The notes: a model not told the origin generated them from the letters alone. A DNA stretch of 27,903 nucleotides from Desulfobulbaceae bacterium (GCA_026990725.1 JALXCX010000056.1:1-27903); one strand, 5' to 3'; numbered from the stretch's first letter, positions 6,956 to 24,196 are shown. Numbers and translations are program-made.

Positions 6956-6957
6956 TT

Positions 6958-7167
6958 ATGGCCAGTGCCGAAGAGATGTATCAGTGCCAGACCGTGGATT
7001 GTGGGTATATCTACGATCCGGACCGGGGAGATCGCAGGCGCAAAATACCTCCAGGTACAGCTTTTACTGACCTTCCTGCCGACTGGCACTGCCCAAGCTG
7101 TGGAGCCGGGAAGAAGATGTTCAGGCCTTTGGCTGGTCCTGGCTCAACTGTTGAAGAAGGAATTTAA
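6958..7167 (+). CDS. rdl: Rubredoxin-like protein (Rdl type, C-x4-C first motif), copy 1
   Basis: [16 protein letters not shown]...[13 protein letters not shown]. Starts 2 nt after the dfx stop. Confidence 0.9.
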
Positions 7168-7181
7168 CTTGGAGTTGTCTC

Positions 7182-7400: not shown

Positions 7401-7432
7401 TTATTAATCAAAAATATGATTAGAGGAATAAC

Positions 7433-7591
7433 ATGAAAAAGCATAGATGTCTTGTTTGTGGCTATGAATATGATCCGGAAGTAGGTGATCCGGGCAATGG
7501 AGTTGCCCCGGGCACTGCTTGGGAGGATGTCCCTGAGGACTGGTGTTGTCCGGTCTGTGGTGCCGGCAAAGATGAATTTGAGGAAGCGTAG
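7433..7591 (+). CDS. rub: Canonical rubredoxin, 52 aa (below the ORF-track length cutoff)
   Basis: Hand translation: [52 protein letters not shown]. Has CxxCG...CPxCG. AGAGGA RBS upstream. Confidence 0.96.
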
Positions 7592-7610
7592 TAAGTCTTT
7601 CTGATGTTTG

Positions 7611-7647
7611 CGCCCCATCGAACCCTTCCGGGTGATGGGGCGTTTTT
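7611..7647 (+). terminator. Intrinsic terminator after rubredoxin
   Basis: CGCCCCATC (7611-19) pairs with GATGGGGCG (7634-42); inner ACCC/GGGT stem; followed by T5. Confidence 0.8.
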
Positions 7648-7743
7648 GATTGTTGGAAGCTGATCGTTTTCCTCTTTACGGTTCTCGGGAGAAGGGGCAT
7701 CTTTCAACAGATAGAGAATAAAGGTACCATTTGAGGGTTTATT

Positions 7744-8091
7744 ATGAAGAAAGTTGTACTTTTCGCTTTTCGCGGCGATCCCATGTGTTTTGTTCACGTC
7801 CTGCTCAATGCTCTTGATTTGGCAGATAAGGGGTTGGAGGGTGGTATTGTTATTGAGGGAGACGCTGTTAAACTTGTTCCTGAAATGGGCAAACCTGACC
7901 ATTTTCTTTATCAGCTTTATACCCAAGCCCGGGAAAAAAATCTCATAATCGGAGCGTGCAAAGCCTGTTCAACAAAATTGGGCGTTGCCGATGATGTTCA
8001 GGCAGAAGGAGTTGAGCTGATTGGCTCCATGTCGGGGCATCCGGGAGTTGCTGAGTACATAGCCCAGGGGTATACGGTTCTTACGTTTTAG
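7744..8091 (+). CDS. DsrE/DsrF-like family protein
   Basis: 115 aa. Shows LFAFRGDPMCFVHVLLNAL, IVIEGDAV and GACKACS; size and the CxxC position fit DsrE-like proteins. Confidence 0.7.
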   Translation: MKKVVLFAFRGDPMCFVHVLLNALDLADKGLEGGIVIEGDAVKLVPEMGKPDHFLYQLYTQAREKNLIIGACKACSTKLGVADDVQAEGVELIGSMSGHPGVAEYIAQGYTVLTF

Positions 8092-8211
8092 AATGAGTTC
8101 TCAGGCAGTACTGCAGATTTATAAAAAATATCGTGGTGTTCTTTGTAAAGCAGTGGATGCCATTATCGTTTTTCAGATCATTAGTTTCAATATCTCAACA
8201 GGAGGGGCGGA

Positions 8212-9432
8212 GTGAAACCAGTCGAGTTAGCAAAAAATGTGTATTGGGTCGGAGCCATAGACTGGCTGACCAGAGATTTTCATGGATATTCCACCAAGCG
8301 GGGCACAACGTATAACGCATATTTGATTGTTGATGAAAAGGTGACGCTTATTGACACGGTTAAAGCCGGTTATCGTAGCGAACTGATGCATCATATTCGT
8401 TCAATTATCGACCCTGAAAAAATTGATTATCTGGTGGTCAATCATGTAGAAATGGATCATTCCGGTTCTCTTCCAGAGGTTATAGAGGAGATCCAACCTG
8501 AAAAAGTGATCTGTTCAAAAATGGGGCACAAGGCCTTGCTCAAACATTTTCATCAGGAGGACTGGCCCTATCACATCGTGACCCCTGGTGAGGAATTAAG
8601 CCTTGGCGAAAAGACATTAAGTTTTCTGGAAACCAGGATGCTGCATTGGCCTGATTCCATGTTTACATATATTAAAGAGGATCAGATTGTTTTTTCAAGT
8701 GACGCTTTTGGCCAGCACCTGGGGACAAGTGAGCGTTTTGACGATGAAGTGAATCAGGATGTTTTGATGTTTGAATCAACAAAGTATTATGCAAACATCC
8801 TTACACTGTATTCACCTATTGTCAAAAAACTCATCGCCCAGATTGAGGAGATGCAACTGCCAATCAAGATGATTGCCCCGGATCATGGCGTGATCTGGCG
8901 TGATAATCCCGGTAAAATAATCAAGGCCTATTCCCGTTGGTGCGCTCATGAAGGAAAGGGTAATGCGCTGGTTATCTATGATACCATGTGGCATTCAACG
9001 AAAAAAATGGCAAAGGCGATCGCCGAGGGGCTCCAGGAAAAAGGGATTAGCTATAAATTACTTGATCTGCAGGTGAATCATCGGAGTGATGTTATGACCG
9101 ATGTGCTTGATGCCAGTGCGGTCATTCTTGGTTGTTCGACATTGAATAATGGTATGTTACCGCGTATGGCTGGATTTTTGATGTATATGCGTGGCCTTCG
9201 TCCTACCAACAAGATTGGCGCGGCTTTTGGTTCATACGGCTGGTCTGGCGAGGCTGTGAAGCTTATGAATAAATCCATGCTGGAGATGAAGTTTACCATG
9301 GTGCATGAGGGGTTGCGGGTGCAGTATGTACCAGAGGACGCTCATTTACGTGAATGTATTGAGCTTGGACATACGATTGCCGATGCTCTAAAGGCCACGC
9401 AATCCGGAAGGGAAGTCGATTCGGTGTTGTAA
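8212..9432 (+). CDS. fprA: Flavodiiron protein (FprA / rubredoxin:oxygen oxidoreductase)
   Basis: GTTYNAYLI, HVEMDHSG, LHWPDSM, SDAFGQH and PDHG metallo-beta-lactamase diiron motifs, plus a flavodoxin domain (YDTMWHST, GSYGWSG). GTG start with AGGAGG RBS. Confidence 0.96.
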   Translation: MKPVELAKNVYWVGAIDWLTRDFHGYSTKRGTTYNAYLIVDEKVTLIDTVKAGYRSELMHHIRSIIDPEKIDYLVVNHVEMDHSGSLPEVIEEIQPEKVICSKMGHKALLKHFHQEDWPYHIVTPGEELSLGEKTLSFLETRMLHWPDSMFTYIKEDQIVFSSDAFGQHLGTSERFDDEVNQDVLMFESTKYYANILTLYSPIVKKLIAQIEEMQLPIKMIAPDHGVIWRDNPGKIIKAYSRWCAHEGKGNALVIYDTMWHSTKKMAKAIAEGLQEKGISYKLLDLQVNHRSDVMTDVLDASAVILGCSTLNNGMLPRMAGFLMYMRGLRPTNKIGAAFGSYGWSGEAVKLMNKSMLEMKFTMVHEGLRVQYVPEDAHLRECIELGHTIADALKATQSGREVDSVL

Positions 9433-9495: not shown

Positions 9496-9819
9496 ATGAA
9501 AATATTGGTTGATAAAAACGTCGTCGAGTTTAGCTTGGAAACGCCCCAGGAAACAGCTGATATGGAAGTGTTGTGGAGAATTCTGGTGGATTGCGTTGCA
9601 GATAATAAAAGAATGGAACCTATTGGTGAGTATATACCGAGCAAAAGCAACGTGGCACGGTTCATTATAGAGGGGGTTCCGGCCAAAACCGTCTACACAG
9701 ATGATGCTGTTAGCGAGGAGTGTACAGTCGTCTGTACAGTGTGCAATAAGTATTCACATCTTAAGGCAGGAGATTCGGTTCCGGTTTGTTGCGGAAAGCC
9801 CATGGAAGATATGGATTAG
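9496..9819 (+). CDS. Hypothetical protein with a C-terminal desulforedoxin-like metal site
   Basis: 107 aa with GGAG RBS. C-terminus CTVC-x14-CCGKPM mirrors centre I of the neighbouring Dfx (CPLC-x15-CCGQPM). Confidence 0.75.
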   Translation: MKILVDKNVVEFSLETPQETADMEVLWRILVDCVADNKRMEPIGEYIPSKSNVARFIIEGVPAKTVYTDDAVSEECTVVCTVCNKYSHLKAGDSVPVCCGKPMEDMD

Positions 9820-9850
9820 TTTTTTACTTTTTTACTGTCGTGTTTTTGTA

Positions 9851-9885
9851 CGCCATTGCCGAATATCGGTGGTGGCGTTTTTTTT
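9851..9885 (+). terminator. Intrinsic terminator closing the oxidative-stress cluster
   Basis: CGCCATTGCCGA-ata-TCGGTGGTGGCG: 12-bp stem with 3 G-U pairs, followed by T8. Confidence 0.85.
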
Positions 9886-10294
9886 GGCAGGGGCACTTGC
9901 CCGTAATGTCTCTGGTTTAAGAATTGATTAATTTGAAAGGAGAAAAGTAGAATATTGGAATAAGGATCAAAGGGGTCTGGCCGGATTATGATAGAATACT
10001 TTAGAGTAGCAAAGGCATTAACAGAATCGATCAAAAGAATCATCTCAAGAGATACTTTGTGGTGGAATTTTATAAAAAAGGGTTGCTTTGCTGTTCAAGA
10101 AGGTTTTAGGTGTGTATTCAGGTTTGCGAATGATCAAATTATGACGAATTTATTAATAATGAAAATCGTTTCCAACGAGCTGATAATCTGCTAGTTTTTA
10201 GGCTGCGACTGAGTGAGGGCTCATTTTTTTTCATAAAAAAACATTTTTTCCAAATTATTTGCCTTGATGAATTTGTTGTAACTTCGTATTTTCT

Positions 10295-10315
10295 TCAAAT
10301 TATCAAATAATTTGA
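10295..10315. promoter_or_regulatory. Perfect 9-3-9 inverted repeat, candidate operator upstream of the molybdoenzyme-nuo operon
   Basis: TCAAATTAT-caa-ATAATTTGA. Confidence 0.45.
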
Positions 10316-10659
10316 TCATGAACCAAGTAAAAATAGATTACTTTTTCTTCTAAGAGTGATGTAAAGTGCTCCCACTTTTTAAAAATATGAGTTGTTTCAA
10401 GGGCTTGGGTGTTTTGTTTTTTTACATTTATATTCATCATAAAAAATAAACGAAAGGCTGTTTTTTGAAACGATAATAAATTTAATGAGTTAGGGGCGCT
10501 TGCTGTTGTCCCGGCCCGGCCTCAGTGGTTGGAGGAAGATAGACGGTTGTACTTGAAAAAAGATTGAGTAAGTTTTCTAGGAATGAAGTGGGCTGGTCAA
10601 TTATCATTTGAACCCTGCGGCGCATTTTGGCGCCCTGCAAAAAAACCAAGAGGATGAAC

Positions 10660-12744
10660 ATGAAAAAATCTGTGTATTCCATCTGCGGTATGTGTGCCGT
10701 GCGCTGCCCAGTCAGGGTAGAGGTAGAAAATGGAAAGGTTACCTGGATTGAGGGTAATGCGAATGATGGCGGTATGGGTACCTCGATTTGTGCAAAAGCT
10801 GCTTCCTCCATTCCTATGTTAGATGATGACCAACGGCCACTTAACCCGATGATAAGAGACGGGGCCCGGGGGAGCGGAAAATGGAAAAATGTCTCGTGGG
10901 ACGAGGCTTATGACTATATAGAGGAAAAACTCAAAGGTGTTGTCGATAAGTACGGCGCAAAGTCGATAATTTTTTCTGACCGTGGTGGCCCGTTTGCAGA
11001 TCTACATAAGGCGTTCATGAAGGCCTTGGGTGCACCAACTTATATGAACCATGACTGTTCCTGCGGGCGTAATCCGAATCATGCGTCAAAATCAGTGAGT
11101 GGTCTGGGAAGAACAGCTTTTAATTATGATTTTAAAAACGCCAAGCATATAGTTTTGTTTGGCCGGAATATTACAGAGTCGTTTAAGGTTAAAGAAGTTA
11201 AGAGTTTCCTCAAGGCTGTCAAAAACGGTGCCCATGTCACATATGTTGATCCCCGGGTTACCAATACAGCAGGTAAGGCAACCCGTTACTGGGCAGTTAA
11301 ACCGGGAACAGACTATGCTCTTCTCTTAGGGATTACTAATTTTATCGTGGCAAACAAATTCTACGATGAGAAATTTGTTAAGAAATGGGTAAGCGGCATG
11401 AAAGAGCTTCGAGCCTTTCTTAAACCCTACACTCCCGAATGGGCAGAAAAAGAAACAGGTATTTCTGCTGCAGAGATCAAGGCCTTTTGCAAGGAAATCA
11501 ACGAAGATCGACCAGGTGTTATTTTTCATATTGGCTGGCTCCTTGCCCGATACAAGGACTCTTTTTATGCCAGCCGTATGTTGAACATTCTTAACGCACT
11601 TATGGGGAATGTGGAACAGCCTGGCGGGCTGATCGTCCCGAAAACACCCGGTGACGCAGGGGCCAAAGGCTTGAAAAGCCTGGGGGCCAATATCCCCGCA
11701 GTGAAGGAGCCTCGGGCAGATTTATGTGACAGCGATTATTCACATTTTGATAATGGGGCCGGGATGTTGCAACTCGCCTACCAGGCAATCGATACTGGCA
11801 AGCCTTACCCTGTCAAAGCATATTTTGTTGATCGGCATAACCCGTTGCTAGCAATGCCGGATCCGGAAGAACAGAAGCGGATTCTTGATAAGCTTGATCT
11901 TTTGGTCGTGTGCGAGGTGAACTACAGTGAAACAGCCTGCTTTGCAGATGTTATTCTTCCGGAATCAACATTTCTTGAGCGTGATACGTTGTTGAGAACA
12001 GAAAAAGGGCCTAAGCCTGGGTTTGGCATGCGTAGAAAATGTATCGAACCGTTACATGATACCAAGGCCGGCTGGGAAATTTATACGGAACTTGCCCGGA
12101 GGATGGGTAAAGGAGAGTACTTCCCGTATGATACGATTGAAGATCTCTGGAATTTTCAATTACAAGATACGAATGTTAAAATTGAAGATTTTGACGCCAA
12201 GGGCTTTGTCAAACTGTGTGATAAACCAATTCCGAGTAACCCTAGTAAGTTTAAGCTTGGAACCGAGTCAGGTAAATTTGAGATCGTTAACAAGAGTTGG
12301 GAGGCAAAAGGTATCAAGTCTTTGAAGCCTTATGAGGCTCCTGTTGAGCCGCCTGAAGGAAGCTTTCGCTTACTCTTTGGTCGAAAAGGATATCAGGCGC
12401 ATGGTCAGTCAATTAACAATCCTGTTCTTTCTCAGTTGCTAGGGACAAACGACCTGTTGATCCATACCGACGCTGCCGCAAAACTCGGCATTAAAGATGG
12501 TGATATGGTTGAAGTGGCTAACGGTGATGTCAAGGGAACGATTGAGGTCAAGGTAACGGATTTTATAGACAGTAAATGTGTATTTATGCTCCATGGTTTT
12601 GGCAAAACAAACCCGCTGTTGGCAAGAGCTTACGGTAAAGGGCTGGCAGATGAGGCCTTCATGACAGGCAAGCTTCTTGATTTTGATCCGGCTGGTGGTG
12701 GAATTAACCTGTGTGAATCTTTTGTGACCGTTAAGGCTGCGTGA
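10660..12744 (+). CDS. Mo/W-bis-PGD oxidoreductase catalytic subunit, PhsA/PsrA-like, no Tat signal (cytoplasmic)
   Basis: N-terminal C-x2-C-x3-C-x27-C [4Fe-4S] motif (CGMCAVRC...CAK) begins at residue 9, leaving no room for a twin-Arg leader. Also VSWDEA, NHDCSC (Cys Mo-ligand region), VDPR, DVILPESTFLER and C-terminal FMLHGFG. Start set at ATG 10660 (GAGGA 5 nt upstream). Confidence 0.9.
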   Translation: MKKSVYSICGMCAVRCPVRVEVENGKVTWIEGNANDGGMGTSICAKAASSIPMLDDDQRPLNPMIRDGARGSGKWKNVSWDEAYDYIEEKLKGVVDKYGAKSIIFSDRGGPFADLHKAFMKALGAPTYMNHDCSCGRNPNHASKSVSGLGRTAFNYDFKNAKHIVLFGRNITESFKVKEVKSFLKAVKNGAHVTYVDPRVTNTAGKATRYWAVKPGTDYALLLGITNFIVANKFYDEKFVKKWVSGMKELRAFLKPYTPEWAEKETGISAAEIKAFCKEINEDRPGVIFHIGWLLARYKDSFYASRMLNILNALMGNVEQPGGLIVPKTPGDAGAKGLKSLGANIPAVKEPRADLCDSDYSHFDNGAGMLQLAYQAIDTGKPYPVKAYFVDRHNPLLAMPDPEEQKRILDKLDLLVVCEVNYSETACFADVILPESTFLERDTLLRTEKGPKPGFGMRRKCIEPLHDTKAGWEIYTELARRMGKGEYFPYDTIEDLWNFQLQDTNVKIEDFDAKGFVKLCDKPIPSNPSKFKLGTESGKFEIVNKSWEAKGIKSLKPYEAPVEPPEGSFRLLFGRKGYQAHGQSINNPVLSQLLGTNDLLIHTDAAAKLGIKDGDMVEVANGDVKGTIEVKVTDFIDSKCVFMLHGFGKTNPLLARAYGKGLADEAFMTGKLLDFDPAGGGINLCESFVTVKAA

Positions 12745-12760
12745 GCCGGAGGAAAAGACA

Positions 12761-13264
12761 ATGAGCAAATATTATGTAACCCAGGATGTTGAGCAGTGTA
12801 TTGGTTGTAAGGCCTGTGAAGTACATTGCAAGACAAAGAACAATAGTGGCGAGGGTGCTTTTTTCTGTAAAATGATTGAGGTCGGTCCGAAGGTTCGCAA
12901 TAATGTTCCGGTGATTGATTTTGTTTACATGGCTTGTTTTCACTGTGAAAAACCATGGTGTGTTGACGCCTGTCCTACAGGGGCCATGCAGAAGCGGGAA
13001 AAAGACGGAATTGTTTTTGTGGAAGAAAGTCTTTGTGTCGGCTGCAAGGCCTGCATGACTGCCTGTCCATGGGGAGTTCCTCAGTGGGATGTTAACACGG
13101 GTAAAGTTGATAAATGTGACCTTTGTAAAGATCGGATCGATGAAGGTCTGGAGCCCGCCTGTGTGACCAAGTGTACGACGAATTGCCTGACCTTCTGTAC
13201 GCCTGACAAGGCCTCAGATGATAAAAGACAGCAATTTGCTGAGAAATTGTTTCAAAACAGATGA
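12761..13264 (+). CDS. 4x[4Fe-4S] electron-transfer beta subunit (PsrB/DmsB/NrfC type)
   Basis: CIGCKACEVHC, CFHCEKPWCVDACP, CVGCKACMTACP, CDLC...PACVTKC. GGAGG RBS. Confidence 0.93.
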   Translation: MSKYYVTQDVEQCIGCKACEVHCKTKNNSGEGAFFCKMIEVGPKVRNNVPVIDFVYMACFHCEKPWCVDACPTGAMQKREKDGIVFVEESLCVGCKACMTACPWGVPQWDVNTGKVDKCDLCKDRIDEGLEPACVTKCTTNCLTFCTPDKASDDKRQQFAEKLFQNR

Positions 13265-13277
13265 TAGAGGATAGACC

Positions 13278-13652
13278 ATGACTGTACAGTCACTCCCTCA
13301 GGAATACCTTGCCATCTGTATATTGACAGCTTTTGGTGTCATTTTTGGCGTGGTAACCCTGTATGCAGGACGTTTCTTCAGGCTCAGCCGACCGTATAAA
13401 GAAAAGCTGATTGCTTACGAGTCTGGTAATGAGCCGACAGAATCGCCGCGGATGCGGTTTTCGATTAAGTTTTATCTGATTGCTATCCTGTTTGTTGTCT
13501 TCGATGTGGAAGCAATATATCTCTACCCCTGGGCGATTATTTATGATCGGCTGGGATTATTTGCCTTGGTCGAGATGATGATATTTATCTTCCTGCTGCT
13601 TTTTGGATTTGTTTATGCCTGGAAGAAGGAGATCCTGCAATGGGAAAAATAA
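13278..13652 (+). CDS. nuoA: NADH:quinone oxidoreductase-like subunit A
   Basis: [31 protein letters not shown]; three hydrophobic segments. Confidence 0.95.
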
Positions 13653-14161
13653 AAGAGGTTGAACTCGTCGAGATTGAGGACGGGGTAAAAATGATACCGG
13701 GAGCAAACGCTGTTTTGGGCCCGTTGAATAAGATAATCAACTGGGGCCGGTCTGGTTCAATTTGGCCAATGACCTTTGGTTTGGCTTGCTGCGCTATTGA
13801 AATGATGGATGCGGGAGCAGCAACCAATGACCTTGATCGGTTTGGTATTATTTTCCGGGCAAGTCCTCGTCAGGCTGATTGCATGATTGTCGCAGGCACC
13901 CTGACCAAGAAAATGGCTCCGGTGCTGCGTCGTGTTTATGATCAAATGCCCGAACCTCGATATGTTCTTGCCATGGGGAGCTGCGCATGCAGTGGTGGTG
14001 TATTCGATACTTATTCTGTCACCCAGGGTGTTGATACAATAGTTCCGGTTGATGTGTATATACCTGGCTGCCCACCGCGGCCGGAGGCATTGATTGAAGG
14101 TCTACTTAAATTACAGAAAAAAATCATGGGGGAAGATTTCAGATGGAGTCAATGGAGATAG
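13640..14161 (+). CDS. nuoB: Subunit B (cluster N2)
   Basis: [36 protein letters not shown]. Confidence 0.96.
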
Positions 14162-14757
14162 CAAAACGTCTTCAGGCAAAGTTCCCCGATGAGGTACTTG
14201 ACGCCTATACACACCACGGACAAACAGCTGTAATCGTTTCTGGTGAGAAGATTCTCGATATTCTTGGCTGGCTGCGTAATGACGCTGAGATGAATTTTGA
14301 TCATCTCATGAGTTTATGCGCTGTTGACAACATAAAAAGGATGGAGGAAGGCTTGTTCCGTTTTGAAGTTGTTTACAACCTTTACTCAATAGCCAAGAAG
14401 CATTCCATTCGAGTTCGTGCCCAGGTTCCTGAGGCTGAACATAGTATCCACTCTGTTACCTCAATCTGGGACGGTGCCAACTGGCTGGAACGTGAGTGTT
14501 ATGACCTTATGGGGATAACCTTTATAGATCATCCTGATTTGCGGAGGGTTTTACTGCCCGATGATTGGGAAGGACATCCTCTTCGTAAGGAATACCCGTT
14601 GAAAGGGAAGGAAGAGTGGATCGGCCTCACCAGGCTCATAGAAAAGGCTGAAAGATTACGGAAGTATTCTTTTGGTTTTGAAGAGGAAGCTGAAGTCATT
14701 GACACAAATAAATCATCAGAAGCCAGCGAGCAGACTGATAAACAAGGGGACGATTAA
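14143..14757 (+). CDS. nuoC: Subunit C
   Basis: [35 protein letters not shown]. Confidence 0.95.
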
Positions 14758-14759
14758 GC

Positions 14760-15986
14760 ATGACACGCCCTATATCTAAGACAATTAATGTTCCGGTTGC
14801 TGATGGAGAAGGAGATCGCTACAGCCTGAGAATGGGGCCGCAGCATCCAGCAACCCATGGAGTACTTCGGGTCGACCTTGACCTCGACGGTGAGACGATT
14901 CTTAAATGCACACCTCATGTTGGCTATCTTCACAGGGGCTTTGAGAAACTTGCCGAGCATCGAACGTATGCCCAATCGCTTATCCTGACTGACCGGCTCG
15001 ATTATATCGCAGCCATGTCAAATAATGTAGGATATTGCGTTGCTGTAGAGAAGCTGCTTGACATAACAGTCCCTGATCGAGCGAAATATATCCGTACTAT
15101 TGTTGGCGAGATGTCTCGTCTCTGTTCACATTTGCTCTGGCTTGCAACTCATGCACTGGATATTGGTGCCATGACAGTTTTTCTCTACTGTTTCCGTGAA
15201 CGTGAGATATTACTTGATCTTTTTGAAAAACTTTGCGGGGCACGACTGACCTTTTCCTACCCGAGAATAGGGGGTGTGCGGCAGGATGTTACAGCAGATT
15301 TTATCGATGGTTTGCAGAGATTTGTTCATATCTTTCCCGATATGGTCAAAGAGTATGAGACGCTCATTGATACCAACCGTATCTGGCTGATTCGAACTGT
15401 AGGAATTGGTGTGTTAACCGGTGAAGAAGCCCTTTCACTCGGTTTAACGGGAGCCTGTTTACGTGGTTCCGGTATAGATTATGATGTTCGCAAGCATCGT
15501 CCATACGATGCGTACGATCAAGTTGATTTTGAAGTACCTGTGGGAACCGACGGGGACATTTATTCACGGTATCGTTGCCGTATAGAAGAGATGCTCCAGT
15601 CAAATTATATCCTGCAGCAATGTATAGATCAACTGCCTCCTGGGCCTATTATTAACGATGATGCTCCTGATCTCGTTATGCCAATGCAGGGAGAGCGTCA
15701 ATATGCTGCGGAAACAACATCTTATGGAACTGGTCTGATAAAATTTATAGATGACAAAGGGCGTTATCCTGTTGGTGACGTCTATGTGTCAACAGAAGTT
15801 CCCAAGGGGGAACTTGGTTTCTATTTTATCAGCGATGGCAGTGGCCATCCCTACCGTATGCATATCCGGTCACCATCATTCATTCACATAGGAGCATTAC
15901 CACGCCTGTCCGAAGGTGGAATGATCGCTGACCTGATTGCCAATATTGGAACCATGGACGTGGTTCTTGGGGAATGCGACCGGTAA
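14760..15986 (+). CDS. nuoD: Subunit D (quinone-binding, no NiFe ligands)
   Basis: MGPQHPATHGVLR, GYLHRGFEK, DRLDY, EVPKGELG, RSPSF, DVVLGECDR. No CxxC or DPCxxC hydrogenase motifs. Confidence 0.96.
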   Translation: MTRPISKTINVPVADGEGDRYSLRMGPQHPATHGVLRVDLDLDGETILKCTPHVGYLHRGFEKLAEHRTYAQSLILTDRLDYIAAMSNNVGYCVAVEKLLDITVPDRAKYIRTIVGEMSRLCSHLLWLATHALDIGAMTVFLYCFREREILLDLFEKLCGARLTFSYPRIGGVRQDVTADFIDGLQRFVHIFPDMVKEYETLIDTNRIWLIRTVGIGVLTGEEALSLGLTGACLRGSGIDYDVRKHRPYDAYDQVDFEVPVGTDGDIYSRYRCRIEEMLQSNYILQQCIDQLPPGPIINDDAPDLVMPMQGERQYAAETTSYGTGLIKFIDDKGRYPVGDVYVSTEVPKGELGFYFISDGSGHPYRMHIRSPSFIHIGALPRLSEGGMIADLIANIGTMDVVLGECDR

Positions 15987-16032
15987 CAGAAAAATCATGG
16001 CTAATTTAGAAATCAGCTAAAGGTAATCACTT

Positions 16033-17001
16033 ATGCATGTTCTGATTGTACTCATTGAAATACTTGTTCTGTTTGCCGTTGTCATGTTGCATGTGGCATA
16101 TGCGACCTACTTCGAGCGAAAAATAATTGGGCATATGCAGGTACGACTCGGCCCGATGCAAGTGGGCTGGCATGGCCTTTTGCAACCAATTGCTGATGGT
16201 ATTAAGAGTTTTTTTAAAGAGGATGTCATCCCCGACTGTGCGGATGTTTTAGCCTTCCGGGCCGCTCCTATTATCTGTTTAACATCTATGTTGACAGCGC
16301 TTGCGGTTGTTCCTTTTGCCAAGGGTTGGGTTCTTGCTGATATCAATATAGGCTTGCTCTTTATTTTCGCAATGAGCTCGCTTTCAAGCTACGGTGTTCT
16401 CCTGGCAGGCTGGGCTTCAAATTCCAAGTACACCTTTTTAGGTGGTTTGAGATCAATGGCTCAAGTCGTGAGTTATGAGATCTCAATGGGGTTGAGTCTA
16501 GTCGGTGTTATGATGTTGTCCGGCACGTTGAATTTAACAAAGATTGTTGAGGCACAGGGTACAAGTCTTGGAGGAATTTATCTATTTCCTCAAATAATCG
16601 CTTTCTTTGTTTTTTGTATAGCCATGCTCGCTGAGACAAATCGCGTTCCTTTTGATCTTCCCGAAGCTGAGACCGAGCTGGTTTCCGGGTATATTACAGA
16701 ATACAGCGGTATGCGATATGCCATGTTTTTCATGGCTGAGTACATTGGCATGATGATAATGTCAGCTATTGGTGTCATTTGTTTTCTTGGTGGCTGGAAT
16801 GGTCCGTTTGAGGTCTCTTTCTTTCCTCCATTTTGGCTTGTATTAAAAATTTATGTATTCATGTTTTTCTTTATTTGGATACGTGCGACCCTGCCAAGGT
16901 ATCGTTATGATCAGCTTATGGATATAGGCTGGAAATTACTCATTCCGCTGGCATTGGGAAATATTGTACTTACCGCTCTTTTTAAAGCGCTGGTCGGTTA
17001 A
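16033..17001 (+). CDS. nuoH: Subunit H
   Basis: ERKIIGHMQVRLGP, QPIADGIK, AETNRVPFDLPEAETELVSG, PRYRYDQLM. Confidence 0.96.
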   Translation: MHVLIVLIEILVLFAVVMLHVAYATYFERKIIGHMQVRLGPMQVGWHGLLQPIADGIKSFFKEDVIPDCADVLAFRAAPIICLTSMLTALAVVPFAKGWVLADINIGLLFIFAMSSLSSYGVLLAGWASNSKYTFLGGLRSMAQVVSYEISMGLSLVGVMMLSGTLNLTKIVEAQGTSLGGIYLFPQIIAFFVFCIAMLAETNRVPFDLPEAETELVSGYITEYSGMRYAMFFMAEYIGMMIMSAIGVICFLGGWNGPFEVSFFPPFWLVLKIYVFMFFFIWIRATLPRYRYDQLMDIGWKLLIPLALGNIVLTALFKALVG

Positions 17002-17019
17002 GGGAGGCTTCAGTTTTAC

Positions 17020-17646
17020 ATGCAGATTCAATATAAACCAAAAAGAAACCTGCTGCAGACCATCCTGCATGTTGAGATTATGCAGGGTATGGCGTTGACC
17101 TTACGCAAGCTCTTTTCTAAGCCCATAACACGGCAGTACCCGAAAGAGATGCCTGATGTTCAACTTGGGTTTCGAGGACAACATGCGCTGGTTCGTGATG
17201 AAGATACTGGTCAATCAAAATGTGTTGCCTGTATGCGGTGTGTTACTGTCTGTCCGTCACGATGTATTAAGATCACCTATCATGATGATGAAGAAACAGG
17301 TGCCAGAGTCGTTGACACCTACGATATTGAAGCCCTTCGTTGTGTTTATTGCGGCTTTTGCGAAGAGGTGTGTCCTGTTAATGCGGTTACCTTGACTGAA
17401 GTTTTTGAATATTCAGCTTATGCGCGTGAGGAAATATTTTTTAATCAGGAGACATTGCTGGCGAACTGGGATCGATTTGCCAAAGATAAAGGTTCTGATA
17501 TGTCAACTTACGTAAATCCCTTCTGGCGGCCACGTGGTATGAACGCAGATAAACTTACTGCTGCAAAGAGGGTAGAAGTACCAGACGAATGGACCATTAA
17601 AGGCCAGGTTGTCGGTAAAAAATTTAAGGCAAAGGGTACTGAATAA
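17020..17646 (+). CDS. nuoI: Subunit I (2x[4Fe-4S]) with C-terminal extension
   Basis: TRQYP, FRGQH, CVACMRCVTVCP, CVYCGFCEEVCP. Confidence 0.95.
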   Translation: MQIQYKPKRNLLQTILHVEIMQGMALTLRKLFSKPITRQYPKEMPDVQLGFRGQHALVRDEDTGQSKCVACMRCVTVCPSRCIKITYHDDEETGARVVDTYDIEALRCVYCGFCEEVCPVNAVTLTEVFEYSAYAREEIFFNQETLLANWDRFAKDKGSDMSTYVNPFWRPRGMNADKLTAAKRVEVPDEWTIKGQVVGKKFKAKGTE

Positions 17647-17659
17647 GGAGCCGGTCTTT

Positions 17660-18187
17660 ATGTTTACACAAATTTTCTTCCTCTACTGTGCCGTGATGAT
17701 ATTAGGCAGTGCAATGCTTGCTATCACACGACGAAACCCTGTACATGCGGTGCTAATGTTACTGTTGATGTTTTTTCATATGGCAGGATTATACATTTCA
17801 CTACAGTCAGAATTCCTTGCTGCCGTACAGATTATTGTTTACGCAGGTGCCATTCTCGTTCTCTATCTGTTTGTTCTTTTCCTTGTCAATATACGTGAAG
17901 AATTACAAATCGATTCACTGGTTGACAGTGCATGGCTTGGCCGGATTATTTCGGCTACTCTGGCTCTTATTCTAGTTAGCATCATTCCAGCTTTTGTTCT
18001 CGGCGAAAAAGGTAGCTGGCCCGTTGAAAGGATACAGGAACTAACACATACGAAAGCAATCGGACTGGCAATGTATACAACCTATATATTTCCATTTGAG
18101 ATTGCTGGTCTGATACTGCTTGTTGCGGTCATAGGTGGACTGGTTCTGGCTAAAAAAGATAATACAAATCAAACATTGGAAGGCTGA
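17660..18187 (+). CDS. nuoJ: Subunit J
   Basis: RNPVHAV, EFLAAVQIIVYAGAILVLYLFV, FPFEIAGLILLVA. Start moved to ATG 17660 (AAGGAG 9 nt upstream). Confidence 0.94.
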   Translation: MFTQIFFLYCAVMILGSAMLAITRRNPVHAVLMLLLMFFHMAGLYISLQSEFLAAVQIIVYAGAILVLYLFVLFLVNIREELQIDSLVDSAWLGRIISATLALILVSIIPAFVLGEKGSWPVERIQELTHTKAIGLAMYTTYIFPFEIAGLILLVAVIGGLVLAKKDNTNQTLEG

Positions 18188-18280
18188 TATCATGGTAGGC
18201 ACCCAAGTCCTTGCTCACGACATAACAATGACTGTTATATCTCGAATGAGTCTTCAGTCGAAAGAACCGGAGGCTAACAG

Positions 18281-18583
18281 ATGATTCCATTAAGCTGGTA
18301 TATGGCACTGGCGGCAATTTTATTCGCCATCGGAGTGTGCGGGTTTCTGACCCGAAGAAATATCATCATAATGTTTCTTTCCACTGAATTGATGCTCAAT
18401 GCCGTGAATCTTAATTTCGTCGCTTTGAGTCATTACTTAGAATCTATGAACGGACAGGTATTTACTTTTTTTATCATTACCGTAGCAGCAGCGGAAGCGG
18501 CTATCGGTCTTGGTATCGCTGTTTCTTTGTATCGGTGCAGACATACTGTCCATGTTGATGAAATTAATGAGTTGAAGGGGTAA
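18281..18583 (+). CDS. nuoK: Subunit K
   Basis: [31 protein letters not shown]. Confidence 0.96.
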
Positions 18584-18585
18584 GC

Positions 18586-20865
18586 ATGAAATTTCGAGTA
18601 TTAAACATAGCTTTCCTGGTTCTTACCCTGGCTGGAATCTGCTGGAGTCAAGATGTGACCGCATCTGTTCATCAAGGTGCAGCGGCACACGTTGCACCTG
18701 TTATGGTTGCACTGAACCACAGTGAAAGTGCAGCGACCACCGCTGTTGACAATGAGCTCATAACTCATAAAACCATTGAAGAGGTGCAGGCTGCCGGCCC
18801 TGCAGATCTTGTTGTTGAGCAGGTAACTGCTGAGGACGGCACAGTTGCTTCGGAGCACGAACCGGCAGAGCACAATGCCGAAGCACACCAGGGAGGACAT
18901 CATTCAAGTGTCCGACAGATAGTTATGCCTCAGGCAGGTGGCAAGATCCCCGGGTTTTTGTTTTTCATTCCTTTTTTGCCGCTAGCCTCATTTTTCTTTA
19001 CTTTTATTTTTGGTAAGTATTTAGGCGTTCGTTCACATTGGGTGCCAATAGTTGCGGTACTTATTTCTTTCTCCTGCGCCTTGAAAGCTTTTTTTATGGT
19101 GAAGGCAGGGCATTATGTCAATCAGGATTTATATACCTGGATTTCATCTGGTGATACGAGAGTTGCTGTCGGGTTTCTTGTTGATCAGCTGACTTCTGTC
19201 ATGTTGATCGTTGTTACGAGTGTCAGTAGCCTTGTCCATATTTATTCTGTTGGATATATGAAGGGTGAAGACGGATATTATCGCTTTTATTCATACTTGA
19301 GCCTTTTTACTTTTTCCATGCTCATGCTGGTACTTGGGAATAACTTTATGCAGTTATTCTTTGGTTGGGAAGCTGTTGGGCTCTCTTCATATTTACTAAT
19401 CGGCTTTTATTACGAAAAAGTATCAGCGGCCACTGCAGGACGGAAGGCCTTTATTGTAAACCGGTTTGGCGATTTCGGTTTTATCCTTGGTTTATTCCTT
19501 ATATATGTAAATTTTGGGTCGCTCCATTATCACGAAGTATTTGCTCATGCACATCAGATAGTTGGCCAGACATTTACCATATTTGGCATGTCCTTTGATA
19601 TGCCTACAGCAATCGCGCTCCTGCTCTTCTGTGGTGCAATTGGTAAATCTGCACAAATTCCGCTTCATGTCTGGTTACCTGATGCCATGGAAGGTCCGAC
19701 CCCCGTTAGTGCTTTGATTCATGCGGCAACGATGGTTACTGCTGGTGTCTTTTTAATTGCCCGCTGTAATGTTCTTTTTGAACTCTCACCATTTGCCATG
19801 AATATTGTGACAATACTCGGTGCTATCACCTGTTTGTTTGCAGCTACTATTGCCCTTGTTCAAACAGATATAAAACGTGTGGTTGCTTACTCAACAGTTA
19901 GTCAGCTAGCCTATATGTTTATTGGCTGCGGTGTTGGAGCCTATTCGGCTGGGGTATTTCATCTTTTTACCCATGCTTTTTTTAAAGCACTCCTGTTTCT
20001 TGGTTGTGGTTCCATCATTTTGGGAATGCATCATGAACAGGAAGTTGAATATATGGGGGGGCTAAAAAAGTATATGCCAATTACTTATTGGACTTTCCTG
20101 TTAGCTTCCCTTTCAATTTCCGGTGTTCCAGGTCTGTCTGGCTTTTTCAGTAAGGATGAAATCCTGCTCATGGCCTTTAATACTCCGATCGGCGCAGGTA
20201 AGTTTGCATGGTTTATTGGAACACTTGTTGCCTTCATGACAGCTTTTTATTCCTTTCGATTATTCTTTCTCATCTTTCACGGAGAGTTTCGTGGAACTCA
20301 AAAACAGAAGGATCATCTCAAGGAATCTCCTCTTGTTGTTACTGTTCCCCTGATGCTGCTTGCTTTCGGTGCAGTCTTTGCCGGTTGGCTTGGCGTACCT
20401 GATATTCTTGGCGGCGAGAACCACTGGGCTTCATTTCTTGCCCCTGTTTTAGGGCATCCACATGTAACAGTATCACATTATGGTGAGTCTTTATTGATGG
20501 GTACATCAATTCTGGCAGGTGTTTTTGGTATACTGCTGGCGTATTATATGTACATTATGCGACCTGAGCTTCCAGGCGAACTCGTTGAACGCTTGCCAAA
20601 AACCTATAATCTGTTGAAAAACAAATACTATATTGATGAGATTTACATTAATTACCTCGTTGATCCTACATTGACGTTCAGCCGCAAATTCATTCTCAAT
20701 GTTGTCGATATTGGTATTATTGAGGGTATTGTCAACGGGATACCGCGGGGGATTGGTGGTCTATCCAAAAAGATGAGAAAGCTTCAGGATGGCCAGGTAT
20801 CTCATTACCTGACTTGGATGGGAGTGAGCTCGTTGCTCATTCTTGTGTGGATGTTTGCAAGATAA
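18586..20865 (+). CDS. nuoL: Subunit L with a ~120-aa N-terminal extension
   Basis: FFGWEAVG, AFIVNRFGD, GKSAQIPLHVWLPDAMEGPTPVSALIHAATMV, YSTVSQL, HAFFKALLF, NKYYIDE. Confidence 0.95.
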   Translation: MKFRVLNIAFLVLTLAGICWSQDVTASVHQGAAAHVAPVMVALNHSESAATTAVDNELITHKTIEEVQAAGPADLVVEQVTAEDGTVASEHEPAEHNAEAHQGGHHSSVRQIVMPQAGGKIPGFLFFIPFLPLASFFFTFIFGKYLGVRSHWVPIVAVLISFSCALKAFFMVKAGHYVNQDLYTWISSGDTRVAVGFLVDQLTSVMLIVVTSVSSLVHIYSVGYMKGEDGYYRFYSYLSLFTFSMLMLVLGNNFMQLFFGWEAVGLSSYLLIGFYYEKVSAATAGRKAFIVNRFGDFGFILGLFLIYVNFGSLHYHEVFAHAHQIVGQTFTIFGMSFDMPTAIALLLFCGAIGKSAQIPLHVWLPDAMEGPTPVSALIHAATMVTAGVFLIARCNVLFELSPFAMNIVTILGAITCLFAATIALVQTDIKRVVAYSTVSQLAYMFIGCGVGAYSAGVFHLFTHAFFKALLFLGCGSIILGMHHEQEVEYMGGLKKYMPITYWTFLLASLSISGVPGLSGFFSKDEILLMAFNTPIGAGKFAWFIGTLVAFMTAFYSFRLFFLIFHGEFRGTQKQKDHLKESPLVVTVPLMLLAFGAVFAGWLGVPDILGGENHWASFLAPVLGHPHVTVSHYGESLLMGTSILAGVFGILLAYYMYIMRPELPGELVERLPKTYNLLKNKYYIDEIYINYLVDPTLTFSRKFILNVVDIGIIEGIVNGIPRGIGGLSKKMRKLQDGQVSHYLTWMGVSSLLILVWMFAR

Positions 20866-20982
20866 CCCCCACACTATATTTCTTAGTAATGAAATGGGTA
20901 ACAACATTGATTTAGTTACCTTGATGATTGGGGAGCGGGTAATAGCTCCTGATTTCCTAAAAAATTAATCACGGGAATAAGC

Positions 20983-22494
20983 ATGTCAGTACCATTGTTA
21001 AGCACCCTAACCTTCTTTCCAGTATTAGGCGGTCTTTCCCTGCTGCTAGTAAAGAAGGAGGAAGTCCAGACCATTAAGATCATGGCCCTGGTTATCAGCC
21101 TGATCGAAATCCTGCTTGCTGTACCGTTGTTTTTTCTGTTTGATAAGACAACGCCTCTCATGCAGTTCACGGAGTTTCATACTTGGATACCAGCTTTTAA
21201 TATCAATTACTCTATGGGGATTGATGGTATCAGCGTGTTGTTTATTCTTCTTTCGGCATTGATTACTACACTGTCAATCAGTGTGTCTTGGGAAGCTATT
21301 CAAACGAAGGTCAAAGAGTTCTTCATTGCTATCCTCATTCTTGAAGGAATGATGATTGGTGTTTTCTGTGCTCTTGATTTCTTCCTCTTTTATATCTTTT
21401 GGGAAGCCATGCTGATCCCCATGTTCCTGATTATCGGTATTTGGGGCGGACCTAATCGGTTGTATGCAACTGTTAAATTCTTTCTCTACACTCTTGTTGG
21501 TAGTTTGTTGATGCTTATTGGTATAATCACTCTGTATGCTCAGGGTGGACATACTTTTGATATCCTGAAACTTGCGCAGCATTCATTTCCAATCGGATTA
21601 CAGAAAACACTTTTTTGGGCATTCTTTGCTGCTTTTGCAGTAAAAGTGCCCATGTGGCCTGTGCATACCTGGTTGCCTGACGCACATACAGAAGCACCCA
21701 CTGCTGGTTCAGTAATACTTGCTGGTATCCTGATTAAGATGGGAGCCTATGGTTTCTTACGATTTTCAATGCCAATCCTCCCGGATGCTACGCAGGCAAT
21801 GATGGTACCGATGCTGGTACTTTCTTTAATCGGTATTATATACGGGGCAATTATCTGTCTTTCTCAAACTGATCTTAAGCGTCTGATTGCCTACAGCTCT
21901 GTAAGTCATATGGGGTTTGTCACTTTAGGTATATATGCTTTGAATCAGCAGAGTATTGAAGGTGGAATCCTGCAGATGATTAATCATGGTGTTGTGACGG
22001 GTGCACTTTTTCTTTCCATCGGCATGGTTTATGAGCGGACTCATACACGTGTTATTGCTGATTATGGCGGACTATCCTCAACTATGCCGGTTTTTGGTTC
22101 CTTTTTCCTCTTTTTTACTTTGGCCTCAGTCGGGCTTCCGGGAACGAATGGATTTATTGGAGAATTTTTGATTCTGCTTGGGAGTTTTATTAATCGGCCC
22201 TGGGTTGCTTTTTTTGCGGCAACTGGCCTCATTCTTGGAGCCTGGTATATGTTATGGCTCTATCAGCGAATATTTTTTAACCCTGTTAACAAGAAGGTTG
22301 TGGGCCTGCCAGAGCTTAATGCACGAGAGATTTGTACACTGCTTCCTATGGTGGCACTCATCTTTTGGATTGGCTTGTACCCGAACGCTATGCTTGGTTT
22401 CATGCATGAGTCGGTACGTCATCTTATTGAACAGGTTTACGGTACAGGTGTTACCCAGACTGCGAGTCAAGTCAGTGCAATGTTAATGCATTGA
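20983..22494 (+). CDS. nuoM: Subunit M
   Basis: GIDGIS, FYIFWEAMLIPM, AVKVPMWPVHTWLPDAHTEAP, KMGAYG, GFIGEF. Confidence 0.96.
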   Translation: MSVPLLSTLTFFPVLGGLSLLLVKKEEVQTIKIMALVISLIEILLAVPLFFLFDKTTPLMQFTEFHTWIPAFNINYSMGIDGISVLFILLSALITTLSISVSWEAIQTKVKEFFIAILILEGMMIGVFCALDFFLFYIFWEAMLIPMFLIIGIWGGPNRLYATVKFFLYTLVGSLLMLIGIITLYAQGGHTFDILKLAQHSFPIGLQKTLFWAFFAAFAVKVPMWPVHTWLPDAHTEAPTAGSVILAGILIKMGAYGFLRFSMPILPDATQAMMVPMLVLSLIGIIYGAIICLSQTDLKRLIAYSSVSHMGFVTLGIYALNQQSIEGGILQMINHGVVTGALFLSIGMVYERTHTRVIADYGGLSSTMPVFGSFFLFFTLASVGLPGTNGFIGEFLILLGSFINRPWVAFFAATGLILGAWYMLWLYQRIFFNPVNKKVVGLPELNAREICTLLPMVALIFWIGLYPNAMLGFMHESVRHLIEQVYGTGVTQTASQVSAMLMH

Positions 22495-22536
22495 TCTGAA
22501 CAATTAATTTTTGTAAGTGAGACAAAAGGATAGACA

Positions 22537-23985
22537 ATGATGGAAACAGCGATTGTCAGCTGGACAGCCTTTGAGCCTATTTTACCAGAAATGTTGCTGG
22601 TATGTATTGCATTGGCCATAATCGGATTCGATTTGTTCGCAGGGAAACAGCGTGAACAACTCATACCTTGGATTACAGTCTTGGGCGGGGTAATCGTCCT
22701 TGGCATGGTAGCCGGAGAAAAGTATGGTCAGGCGTTTGACGGGATGTTTATCACCGATGGATACGCTTCTTTTTTCAAAGTAGTATGCATGATAAGTGTC
22801 ATAATGGCCGCTCTTATGAGTGAACATTTCAGGCAGAGGGAAAAACTTCCGCTGGGGGAATATAATAGCCTCATGGTCCTTTCCGCAGTCGGTATGTTGA
22901 TCATGGCCTCTGCCGGAGATTTGATGGTACTCTATCTGGGCCTTGAATTAATGGCCTTATCTGTTTATTGCCTGGTAGGTCTCCATCACGGTGATCCAAA
23001 GACAGGCGAAGCTGCGATGAAATATTTCCTAATGGGCGGTTTTGCATCTGCAATTCTGCTTTATGGAATGTCATTGGTTTATGGGCTTACTGGAACAACA
23101 AATATAGCCAAGATTGCCCAGTTATCGTCATCTGGACAGTTATTGACTAATCCTGCTCTTATGGCAGCGCTTGGTATGATGATAGCCGCATTTTGTTTTA
23201 AGGTGGCCATCGCTCCATTTCATTTTTGGACACCGGATGTTTATGAAGGTGCACCTACCCCTGTAACAGCATTTATGTCTGTAGGACCTAAGGCTGCAGG
23301 TTTCGCTGTATTTGGGCGTGTGCTCGTATCCGGGTTTCCCCAGTTTCATGATAGCTGGGGGACCTTGCTCTCCCTGCTTGCTATTTTGACAATGGCAGTA
23401 GGTAATATTACAGCTCTTTCTCAGGTTTCAATTAAGAGAATGCTTGCTTATTCCGCCATTGCTCATGCAGGTTATGCCCTTCTTGGTGTCCTTAGTGGTA
23501 CCCCTGAGGGCCTGTCTGCCACCATGAGTTACCTGTTAATCTATGCTTTTATGAATATGGGCGCCTTTGCTATACTCATACTTATGTCCTCTCCGGATAA
23601 CCATCGTGAGACACTTGATGATTTTAAAGGTTTGTCTAAAACCCATCCGGGTGCTGCTTTTATGATGTTGATCTTTATGTTCTCTCTTACTGGTATTCCA
23701 CCAACGGCTGGTTTTATAGGAAAATTCTATCTGCTTAAATCTGCATTAGCTGCCGGCTATACAATGACTGTAATTTGTCTTGTTATTTTCAGCTCAATTT
23801 CAGCTTATTTTTACTTAAGAGTTGTACGTTATATGTACATGGCTGATCCCGAAAAGGAAGTAAGCATCAATTTTACACCGGGGCTTACCGTTGTCCTTGG
23901 TTTATCTCTTTTGGGTGTTATCGGGCTTGGGCTTTTCCCGGGTTCAATGATAGCCCAGGCTGCTGGTGCGCTACTCGGTCAATAA
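22537..23985 (+). CDS. nuoN: Subunit N
   Basis: YLGLELMAL, EAAMKYF, FKVAIAPFHFWTPDVYEGAPTP, KRMLAYSAIAHAGY, GIPPTAGFIGKF. Confidence 0.96.
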   Translation: MMETAIVSWTAFEPILPEMLLVCIALAIIGFDLFAGKQREQLIPWITVLGGVIVLGMVAGEKYGQAFDGMFITDGYASFFKVVCMISVIMAALMSEHFRQREKLPLGEYNSLMVLSAVGMLIMASAGDLMVLYLGLELMALSVYCLVGLHHGDPKTGEAAMKYFLMGGFASAILLYGMSLVYGLTGTTNIAKIAQLSSSGQLLTNPALMAALGMMIAAFCFKVAIAPFHFWTPDVYEGAPTPVTAFMSVGPKAAGFAVFGRVLVSGFPQFHDSWGTLLSLLAILTMAVGNITALSQVSIKRMLAYSAIAHAGYALLGVLSGTPEGLSATMSYLLIYAFMNMGAFAILILMSSPDNHRETLDDFKGLSKTHPGAAFMMLIFMFSLTGIPPTAGFIGKFYLLKSALAAGYTMTVICLVIFSSISAYFYLRVVRYMYMADPEKEVSINFTPGLTVVLGLSLLGVIGLGLFPGSMIAQAAGALLGQ

Positions 23986-24169: not shown

Positions 24170-24196
24170 GACGACCGGTCGTTGTGGCCGGTCGTC
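24170..24196. terminator. GC-rich hairpin between convergent nuoN and cmk, probable terminator
   Basis: GACGACCGGTC-gttgt-GGCCGGTCGTC: 11-bp stem with one G-U pair; pyrimidine-rich tail on the + strand. Confidence 0.6.

Follow-up and report, generated by a model that had tools for sequence, protein, structure and literature searches.

A leaderless PhsAB-like molybdoenzyme encoded ahead of a complex I without NuoEFG: a recurrent arrangement in Desulfobacterota and Nitrospirota and a candidate electron partner of the pump

The 27,903-nt contig of a Desulfobulbaceae bacterium that was analyzed here (GCA_026990725.1, JALXCX010000056.1:1-27903; hereafter the window) carries 13 consecutive + strand genes between positions 10660 and 23985, assigned with Pfam and NCBIfam, which begin with the catalytic subunit of a molybdoenzyme and its iron-sulfur partner (here MoA and MoB, together MoAB) and continue with the genes nuoA to nuoN of a complex I that lacks nuoE, nuoF and nuoG. 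We give about even chances to the reading that the 13 genes form one operon in which a cytoplasmic PhsAB-like molybdoenzyme is electrically coupled to an 11-subunit, menaquinone-reactive and proton-pumping complex I, and comparison of homologous loci makes MoAB a strong candidate for the electron partner of this EFG-less pump. A functional link between MoAB and Nuo is supported by synteny, by the phylogeny of MoB, by RNA contigs over the gene junctions of a relative and by published proteomics; from these we infer how MoAB might dock on the pump, which substrate it might use and in which direction the electrons might run. The earlier note on this DNA had left it to be settled whether the arrangement had been described before, and it had, together with the idea of coupling: Frank et al. 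2016 (PMC5165239) linked the Psr/Phs-type A and B genes THER_0567/0568 to the EFG-less nuo genes THER_0569-0582 of Thermodesulfovibrio sp. N1, which belongs to another phylum (Nitrospirota) than the window, in a single remark of a genome paper that reports no experiment on it. To this known, uncharacterised arrangement the window contributes a further member; the interpretation is plausible and gains support from sequence comparison, but it is not new.

The unit and its two boundaries are the following.

9850-9878, + strand: strong terminator-like hairpin (13-bp stem and T-run) that ends the upstream open reading frame (ORF) 9496-9819; 5' boundary of the unit
9879-10659, + strand: presumed promoter and 5' leader, an AT-rich intergenic region of ~39% GC
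10660-12744, + strand: MoA, 694 amino acids (aa), leaderless Mo/W-bis(pyranopterin guanine dinucleotide) (bisPGD) catalytic subunit of the PsrA/PhsA branch
12761-13264, + strand: MoB, 167 aa, Fer4_11, DmsB/PsrB-like, four Cys motifs and a C-terminal tail of ~20 residues
13278-13652, + strand: nuoA, PF00507, FDVE motif
13640-14161, + strand: nuoB, all four cysteines of cluster N2
14143-14757, + strand: nuoC, PF00329
14760-15986, + strand: nuoD, quinone-site His and Tyr kept, without NiFe Cys ligands
16033-17001, + strand: nuoH, starts 46 nt past nuoD
17020-17646, + strand: nuoI, 208 aa, 2x[4Fe-4S], proposed acceptor/donor of MoB (putative docking role)
17609-18187, + strand: nuoJ, PF00499, ORF overlaps nuoI, start codon uncertain
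18281-18583, + strand: nuoK, PF00420, TEL and AEA motifs
18586-20865, + strand: nuoL, 759-aa ORF with NuoL homology from about residue 125
20983-22494, + strand: nuoM, motifs WEA, VKVP and IKMG
22537-23985, + strand: nuoN, motifs LEL, FKVA and PKAA
24170-24196, + strand: strong terminator-like hairpin 3' of nuoN; downstream boundary, the next genes being convergent on the - strand

When the sequence was read directly, the gene order and the gaps given by the earlier note were all recovered: 16 nt separate the stop codon of MoA from the ATG of MoB, 13 nt separate the stop codon of MoB from the ATG of nuoA, and 46 nt lie between the end of nuoD (15986) and the ATG of nuoH (16033), so that there is no room for nuoEFG. 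Its statement that no terminator separates the two genes from nuoA also held, since strong intrinsic-terminator-like hairpins were found only at the operon flanks (9850-9878 and 24170-24196) and none other around the 13 genes. No Rfam family, whether a molybdenum-cofactor or another riboswitch, matched in a scan of the window that included the 780-nt leader, and alignment of the upstream regions among relatives gave no conserved block besides a small hairpin common to one of them (L037). This is a short GC-rich hairpin at ~10617-10650, directly 5' of the MoA ribosome-binding site, which in L037, the closest relative, has a different loop.

The genes nuoA, B, C, D, H, I, J, K, L, M and N are present, and nuoE, F and G are absent from the operon. 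The window is contig C56 of a 485-contig assembly (87% complete, 6% contamination), and no homologue of NuoF (PF01512) was detected in this assembly; a nuoEFG set elsewhere in the genome was rejected for this reason, and the absence of these genes asserted earlier stands. Every quinone-site and pumping motif that had been quoted for NuoD, L, M, N, K and A was found. NuoD carries HPATH-29 and RLDY-79 and lacks the NiFe Cys ligands, NuoB keeps the N2 cysteines (CCA-50, GSCA-113 and GCPP-143), and the antiporter-like and neighbouring subunits have WEA and GKSAQ (NuoL), WEA, VKVP and IKMG (NuoM), LEL, FKVA and PKAA (NuoN), TEL and AEA (NuoK) and FDVE (NuoA). A second, distant EFG-less nuo-like cluster is present on contig C485 of the same assembly (L007; NuoB 63%, NuoD 38% and NuoH 46% identical to those of the window), and, given the 6% contamination, it could come from another organism.

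MoA contains the Molybdop_Fe4S4, Molybdopterin and Molydop_binding domains, and it also matches NuoG weakly. A search of 1.84 billion representatives and of a 401-genome sample of the phylum separated leaderless homologues of ~695 aa, at least 39% identical to MoA, from Tat (twin-arginine translocation)-bearing ones of ~740-790 aa that are ~30-36% identical; the named relatives closest to MoA belong to Desulfocapsa and Desulfobulbaceae. Among solved structures, Thermus thermophilus PsrA is nearest to MoA (2VPW, E 1e-107) and PsrB to MoB (2VPW_B, E 4e-28); MoB also matches HycB of the formate hydrogenlyase FHL-1 (7Z0S_B, E 2e-12) and of the hydrogen-dependent carbon dioxide reductase (HDCR). 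The Cys motifs of MoB, four in number and all complete, would bind four [4Fe-4S] clusters. The claim that the enzyme is made without a Tat leader was borne out, as the protein read from the ATG at 10660 enters its FS0 motif already at residue 9, and the longest in-frame extension (from TTG 10627) adds only 11 residues with no twin-arginine motif. Likewise, no NrfD/PsrC anchor gene was found in the operon or in the window. The NrfD homologues of the assembly lie on other contigs (C121 and C159), each beside its own Fe-S genes, and an anchor supplied from elsewhere in the genome was rejected on account of this pairing. The 'MOLY' cluster was also rejected as the identity of MoAB, for MOLY is a Tat/TorD-dependent system that includes a TorD/DmsD chaperone and whose predicted location is extracellular.

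The four FS0 cysteines of MoA (C9, C12, C16 and C44) are invariant among 102 homologues, and the Mo-ligand Cys135, aligned to Cys173 of PsrA, is kept in 101 of these rows, the remaining one having Gly. The active-site residues His145 and Arg332 of PsrA correspond to Arg108 and Trp293 in MoA. Arg108 is found in 92 of the 95 leaderless rows, and position 293 is Trp in the rows linked to Nuo and in most stand-alone ones, and Trp or Tyr in those linked to a flavoprotein (see below), whereas the His and Arg of PsrA persist in four of the seven outgroup rows linked to NrfD. By its sequence, MoA is no orthologue of PsrA but belongs to a leaderless subfamily that stands apart within the Psr/Phs branch; it shows the features of the cytoplasmic PhsAB-like class, i.e., a leaderless A subunit of ~695 aa with a B subunit, no C subunit, and the Arg108/Cys135/Trp-or-Tyr293 signature. 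A substrate other than a sulfur compound (arsenate, selenate, nitrate or formate), with the sulfur assignment being an annotation artefact, seems to us very unlikely. It would fit the loss of His145 and Arg332, the score of the best NCBIfam match (PhsA, 523 bits, under the cut-off of 694), the secondary matches to the Fdh, DmsA and Arr families, and the likeness of the flavoprotein partner to YgfK, a 'putative selenate reductase subunit'. However, no other family matches nearly as well as the PsrA/PhsA branch, the great majority of carriers are DsrA-containing Desulfobacterota and Nitrospirota of the sulfur cycle (DsrA is present in the window's organism), and induction by thiosulfate has been published for homologues.

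The earlier note had proposed to look for the same synteny in other genomes, and the arrangement proved not to be limited to one: it recurs in many genomes, far beyond chance. About 140 loci were examined, and MoA and MoB followed directly by nuo genes were found in at least 15 of the 401 sampled genomes, from five GTDB families of Desulfobacterota, plus Nitrospirota, and in three gene orders. The carriers include the window's own family (f1), families f95 and f103, many Desulfobulbia metagenome-assembled genomes (MAGs), Ca. Desulfobia and a Desulfobulbus MAG. The order in f103 is TauE-c5-MoA-MoB-MoB'-nuoA..N and in f44 MoA-MoB-nuoA..N-TauE-c5, where MoA is 39-40% but NuoB 79-80% identical to those of the window. 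In family f33, small genomes of 1.8 Mb which at a guess are of the Thermodesulfobacteriaceae type (G030, G069 and G257; L159-L161), the order is MoA-MoB-nuoB-D-I-A-C-H-J-K-L-L'-M-N, which puts the Fe-S genes of the Q-module (nuoB, D and I) beside MoB. The f33 operon has four antiporter-like genes, a second, separate NuoB is encoded elsewhere in these genomes, and a Tat-type MoB/NrfD pair lies just upstream of the operon in two of the three. A Nitrospirota MAG (L047, 9656-14193, near a contig end) has TauE(split)-MoA-MoB-nuoD-nuoI with no nuoA, B or C in between, and its sister L049 carries a flavoprotein-type operon instead. The Nuo-linked MoA of a Desulfobulbus sp. MAG (L042, 10001-12300) is in two pieces (residues 1-594 and 557-691), possibly through a frameshift, an insertion or an assembly error.

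The trees of the two subunits differ. The main Nuo-linked clade of MoA holds 16 rows, with a support of 98 in the SH-aLRT (Shimodaira-Hasegawa-like approximate likelihood-ratio test), and there are two further placements of Nuo-linked MoA, whereas all Nuo-linked MoB of Desulfobacterota fall into one clade (core 99/93). Two loci in this MoB clade, L046 and L110, have a MoA that groups inside the stand-alone enzymes, and hence MoB seems to travel with Nuo while MoA is replaceable. This is supportive rather than proof of a MoB that stays with the pump and a MoA that may be exchanged, as recombination with a breakpoint between MoA and MoB would yield such trees as well. By these comparisons the window belongs to the main Desulfobacterota clade and is of the Desulfobulbia type.

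No listed RNA run holds the window locus, and a relative of the same family with identical gene order (G095, locus L118; MoA 63% identical) was used, for which three metatranscriptome runs of one anaerobic-digester sample were available. As observed in these runs, RNA contigs, almost all at least 99% identical to the locus, span from within nuoN to ~100-470 nt upstream of MoA, and they bridge the junctions MoA/MoB (15537-16469), MoB/nuoA (15129-15678 and 15063-15778) and nuoA/nuoB (14803-15124). RNA coverage is zero in both flanks, while a DNA-like run does cover them, a pattern that fits one transcription unit. A transcript boundary between MoB and nuoA had been named earlier as an observation that would speak against the coupling; in G095 the contigs cross this junction, although in a relative and at low depth.

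Published work on cultured and uncultured relatives names the separate parts but does not tie them together. Desulfolithobacter dissulfuricans GF1 has contiguous locus tags for PhsA-1 (GF1_30490), PhsB-1 (30500) and Nuo (30510 and 30520, NuoA and NuoB), and in its proteome Nuo subunits appeared under thiosulfate disproportionation alone; the lack of a subunit C was a puzzle to the authors. The phsAB and nuo genes are among the highly transcribed genes of Ca. Desulfobulbus rimicarensis, and in D. dismutans Nuo is up-regulated during disproportionation of elemental sulfur, for which an 'unknown electron-donating oxidoreductase' was proposed. The leaderless PhsAB-like proteins of Dissulfuribacter thermophilus (DITHS69_2027/2028) are among those most induced on thiosulfate, and their possible membrane association was named by the authors as a key open question to be tested. 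Desulfovibrio phsAB mutants are mildly impaired on thiosulfate.

The partners of MoAB were compared over 102 rows. In 36 of them, which make up most of the leaderless MoAB without Nuo and lie in sister clades, MoAB is followed by a GltD/YgfK-type protein of 720-1130 aa, with Fer4_20 and FAD/NAD(P) domains, a C-terminal 2x[4Fe-4S] part and, in its long form, a NuoF-like N-terminus; these operons often add a CBS protein and a [2Fe-2S] protein akin to HoxU and the NuoG N-terminus, one half of which resembles NuoI/HycF. In the third class, beside the Nuo-linked and flavoprotein-linked ones, MoAB stands alone, usually behind TauE/SafE and a small unknown protein, 'c5'. NrfD is found only with the Tat-bearing outgroup (30-35% identical). 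In the classes linked to Nuo or to a flavoprotein, MoB measures 167-175 aa and its C-terminal tail is conserved. The stand-alone MoB has 150 aa (145-150 in the 13 rows that were aligned) and lacks the tail, so that these ~20 residues occur only where the partner is encoded adjacently. The simplest reading of this distribution is that the tail is a docking element whose target may be a 2x[4Fe-4S] ferredoxin-like domain, here that of NuoI. NuoI itself has the same length in a relative that lacks MoAB (G016), and because of this its length is not informative on docking extensions. A TauE/SafE anion permease goes with each of the three leaderless classes and lies inside the Nuo operon in f44 and f103; beside the window's operon TauE is absent, its homologues being on other contigs of the assembly and the upstream genes forming an oxidative-stress cluster. 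Complete soluble-type operons (L089, 6682-16451; L086, 12803-16201; L096) comprise TauE/SafE, c5 (~190 aa, no family match), MoA, MoB, the GltD/YgfK-like flavoprotein, a small ORF, the CBS protein and the HoxU/NuoG-N-terminal plus NuoI-like protein, and such operons also occur in MAGs labelled Chloroflexia, Actinomycetes, Acidobacteriota and Rhodocyclaceae.

Several observations weigh against the coupled reading. G016, a complete genome of the window's family, has orthologous nuoA-N (48-76% subunit identity, 69-76% for NuoA, B, D, H and K), located directly downstream of a 23S-5S rRNA operon (L165, 5415-10015), and no MoAB anywhere, which means that the 11-subunit Nuo works with another partner there. 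Conversely, the same MoAB occurs in many genomes without Nuo close by, and in D. thermophilus nuo is not adjacent to the PhsAB-like genes and the two are regulated in opposite ways, Nuo being lower on thiosulfate. The transcript evidence consists of assembled contigs and not single molecules, at low depth and from an organism other than that of the window, and the exchange of His145 and Arg332 means that the substrate may differ from polysulfide or thiosulfate. MoAB is hence an optional partner rather than 'the' replacement module, and, since G016 keeps nuoA-N without it, a coupling would not be obligate; the earlier claim that the molybdoenzyme replaces the NADH module is partly supported, namely for a recurrent functional link, with docking in place of NuoEFG as a hypothesis.

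The same observations allow for MoAB and Nuo being co-regulated and not docked, with MoAB as a soluble (thio)sulfur reductase that exchanges electrons with a diffusible carrier such as ferredoxin, or with another complex, and the 11-subunit Nuo as a generic ferredoxin:menaquinone oxidoreductase. We regard this as somewhat unlikely. It would account for a Nuo that persists in G016, for MoAB that stand alone or are joined to NAD(P)H modules elsewhere, and for the model of the D. thermophilus authors, in which the PhsAB-like enzyme is disconnected from the membrane; in addition, 11-subunit complex I enzymes are thought to take electrons from several donors, and their redox partner is an open question. 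It is harder to reconcile with a link that survives three gene orders, including the one that places MoB beside nuoB, D and I, with a MoB that co-varies with Nuo and not with MoA, with a tail restricted to adjacently encoded partners, and with the precedent of FHL, in which the beta subunit is docked on the NuoI homologue.

If MoAB is coupled to Nuo, MoA, with its Mo-bisPGD cofactor, Cys ligand and FS0, would turn over a cytoplasmic sulfur compound, most likely converting thiosulfate to sulfite and sulfide, with polysulfide or a persulfide as other possible substrates. MoB would form a chain of four [4Fe-4S] clusters and plug with its C-terminal tail onto NuoI, as HycB wires FdhF to HycF, and the electron path would run from NuoI over NuoB (N2) to the quinone site of NuoD/NuoH. 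The machine would in principle be reversible. During thiosulfate or sulfur disproportionation, or thiosulfate respiration, it would probably run in reverse, the proton-motive force (pmf) pushing electrons of menaquinol, fed by QmoABC/AprAB, to MoA. The reverse direction is expected because the potential of thiosulfate (-402 mV) is far below that of menaquinone (-74 mV; both as quoted in the D. thermophilus paper), and with this gap menaquinol-driven thiosulfate reduction needs an energy input, which a reversed complex I can supply. The idea of reverse flow onto thiosulfate, already in the earlier note, agrees with the literature on leaderless PhsAB-like enzymes, but the replaced PsrA residues make thiosulfate no more than a candidate substrate.

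A forward, energy-conserving direction, in which MoAB would oxidise a low-potential cytoplasmic donor (e.g., sulfite to sulfate, or other reduced sulfur) and pass the electrons via Nuo to menaquinone with proton pumping, is in our view improbable. The span between the sulfite/sulfate couple and menaquinone is comparable to that between NADH and ubiquinone and counts in its favour, as do the frequent proximity of TauE/SafE, a 'sulfite exporter' family, the active site that differs from that of PsrA, and the greater abundance of Nuo in D. thermophilus under sulfite/H2. On the other hand, the nearest characterised relatives are reductases, the genetic and proteomic hints favour thiosulfate reduction, and in these organisms sulfite oxidation is assigned to AprAB/Sat.

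Reverse, menaquinol-driven operation would by analogy make MoAB-Nuo a cytoplasmic counterpart of PhsABC. PhsABC is driven by the pmf, and early physiological work on disproportionators had deduced an energy-dependent reverse electron transport. In a paper that cites Stoffels 2012, the function of PhsABC is given as thiosulfate reduction by menaquinol. More tentatively, and with less confidence than in the coupling itself, MoAB-Nuo might be a 13-subunit, pmf-driven menaquinol:thiosulfate (or sulfane-sulfur) oxidoreductase, i.e., the long-postulated reverse-electron-transport device of sulfur-compound disproportionation, with the MoB tail as a portable adaptor that fits either a NuoF/HoxU/GltD-type NAD(P)H diaphorase or the NuoI face. 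If this were true, the operons would be a natural experiment on how complex I gains and exchanges input modules.

Among the known systems, FHL-1 of E. coli (FdhF-HycB-HycCDEFG; 7Z0S/7Z0T) resembles the window in encoding together a cytoplasmic Mo-bisPGD enzyme, a four-cluster beta subunit and the NuoI homologue of a complex-I-type membrane module, docking being only presumed here; it differs in ending in the NiFe hydrogenase HycE, in having fewer antiporter-like subunits and in using formate and selenocysteine, whereas in NuoD of the window the NiFe ligands are missing and the residues of the quinone site are retained. The nearest homologues, PsrABC (T. thermophilus, 2VPW) and PhsABC (Salmonella), share with MoAB the FS0 cluster, the Cys ligand of Mo and the four-cluster beta subunit, but they are Tat-exported, periplasmic and anchored by NrfD/PsrC. 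The enzymes of D. thermophilus and D. dissulfuricans (PhsAB-1/-2) are, like MoAB, leaderless A and B subunits without C, and were induced or detected under thiosulfate disproportionation; the corresponding papers treat them as soluble and draw no tie to Nuo. Finally, Fpo (with FpoF), the cyanobacterial NDH-1 (with ferredoxin) and the 11-subunit enzyme of Desulfitobacterium have the same 11-subunit core without the N-module, and, unlike the window, no molybdoenzyme as the leading genes of the operon.

Two open questions are touched by this arrangement, namely the electron partner of EFG-less complex I and the path by which disproportionators bring electrons from carriers at about -60/-74 mV to thiosulfate at -402 mV. 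A conserved operon that places a leaderless PhsAB-like enzyme ahead of Nuo makes both directly testable in cultured carriers, and the pattern of module swaps (Nuo, NAD(P)H diaphorase or none) bears on the evolution of complex I from FHL-like ancestors.

Two further features of the window were noted. The nuoL ORF begins right behind nuoK and has ~115-125 extra N-terminal residues (18586-18960), with a signal-peptide-like hydrophobic start followed by a His/Glu/Ala-rich, also acid-rich, low-complexity stretch; the extension is apparently present also in L037 (NuoL match of ~720 aa) and not in L038-L043, and either a periplasmic extension or a wrongly called start (with an internal Met near residue 114) may explain it. 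Upstream of the unit, an oxidative-stress cluster occupies 4531-9432, preceded by three genes on the - strand.

4531-5229: Fur/PerR-like regulator with an extra C-terminal helix-turn-helix, oxidative-stress cluster
5242-5817: rubrerythrin, oxidative-stress cluster
5904-6497: AhpC-type peroxiredoxin, oxidative-stress cluster
6581-6955: desulfoferrodoxin, oxidative-stress cluster
7744-8091: small DsrE-like protein, oxidative-stress cluster
8212-9432: flavodiiron protein, oxidative-stress cluster
2274-3317, - strand: multihaem cytochrome c, adjoining the weakly U32-peptidase-like protein
1066-2277, - strand: weakly U32-peptidase-like protein
2-1105, - strand: 'male sterility'-type NAD-binding reductase

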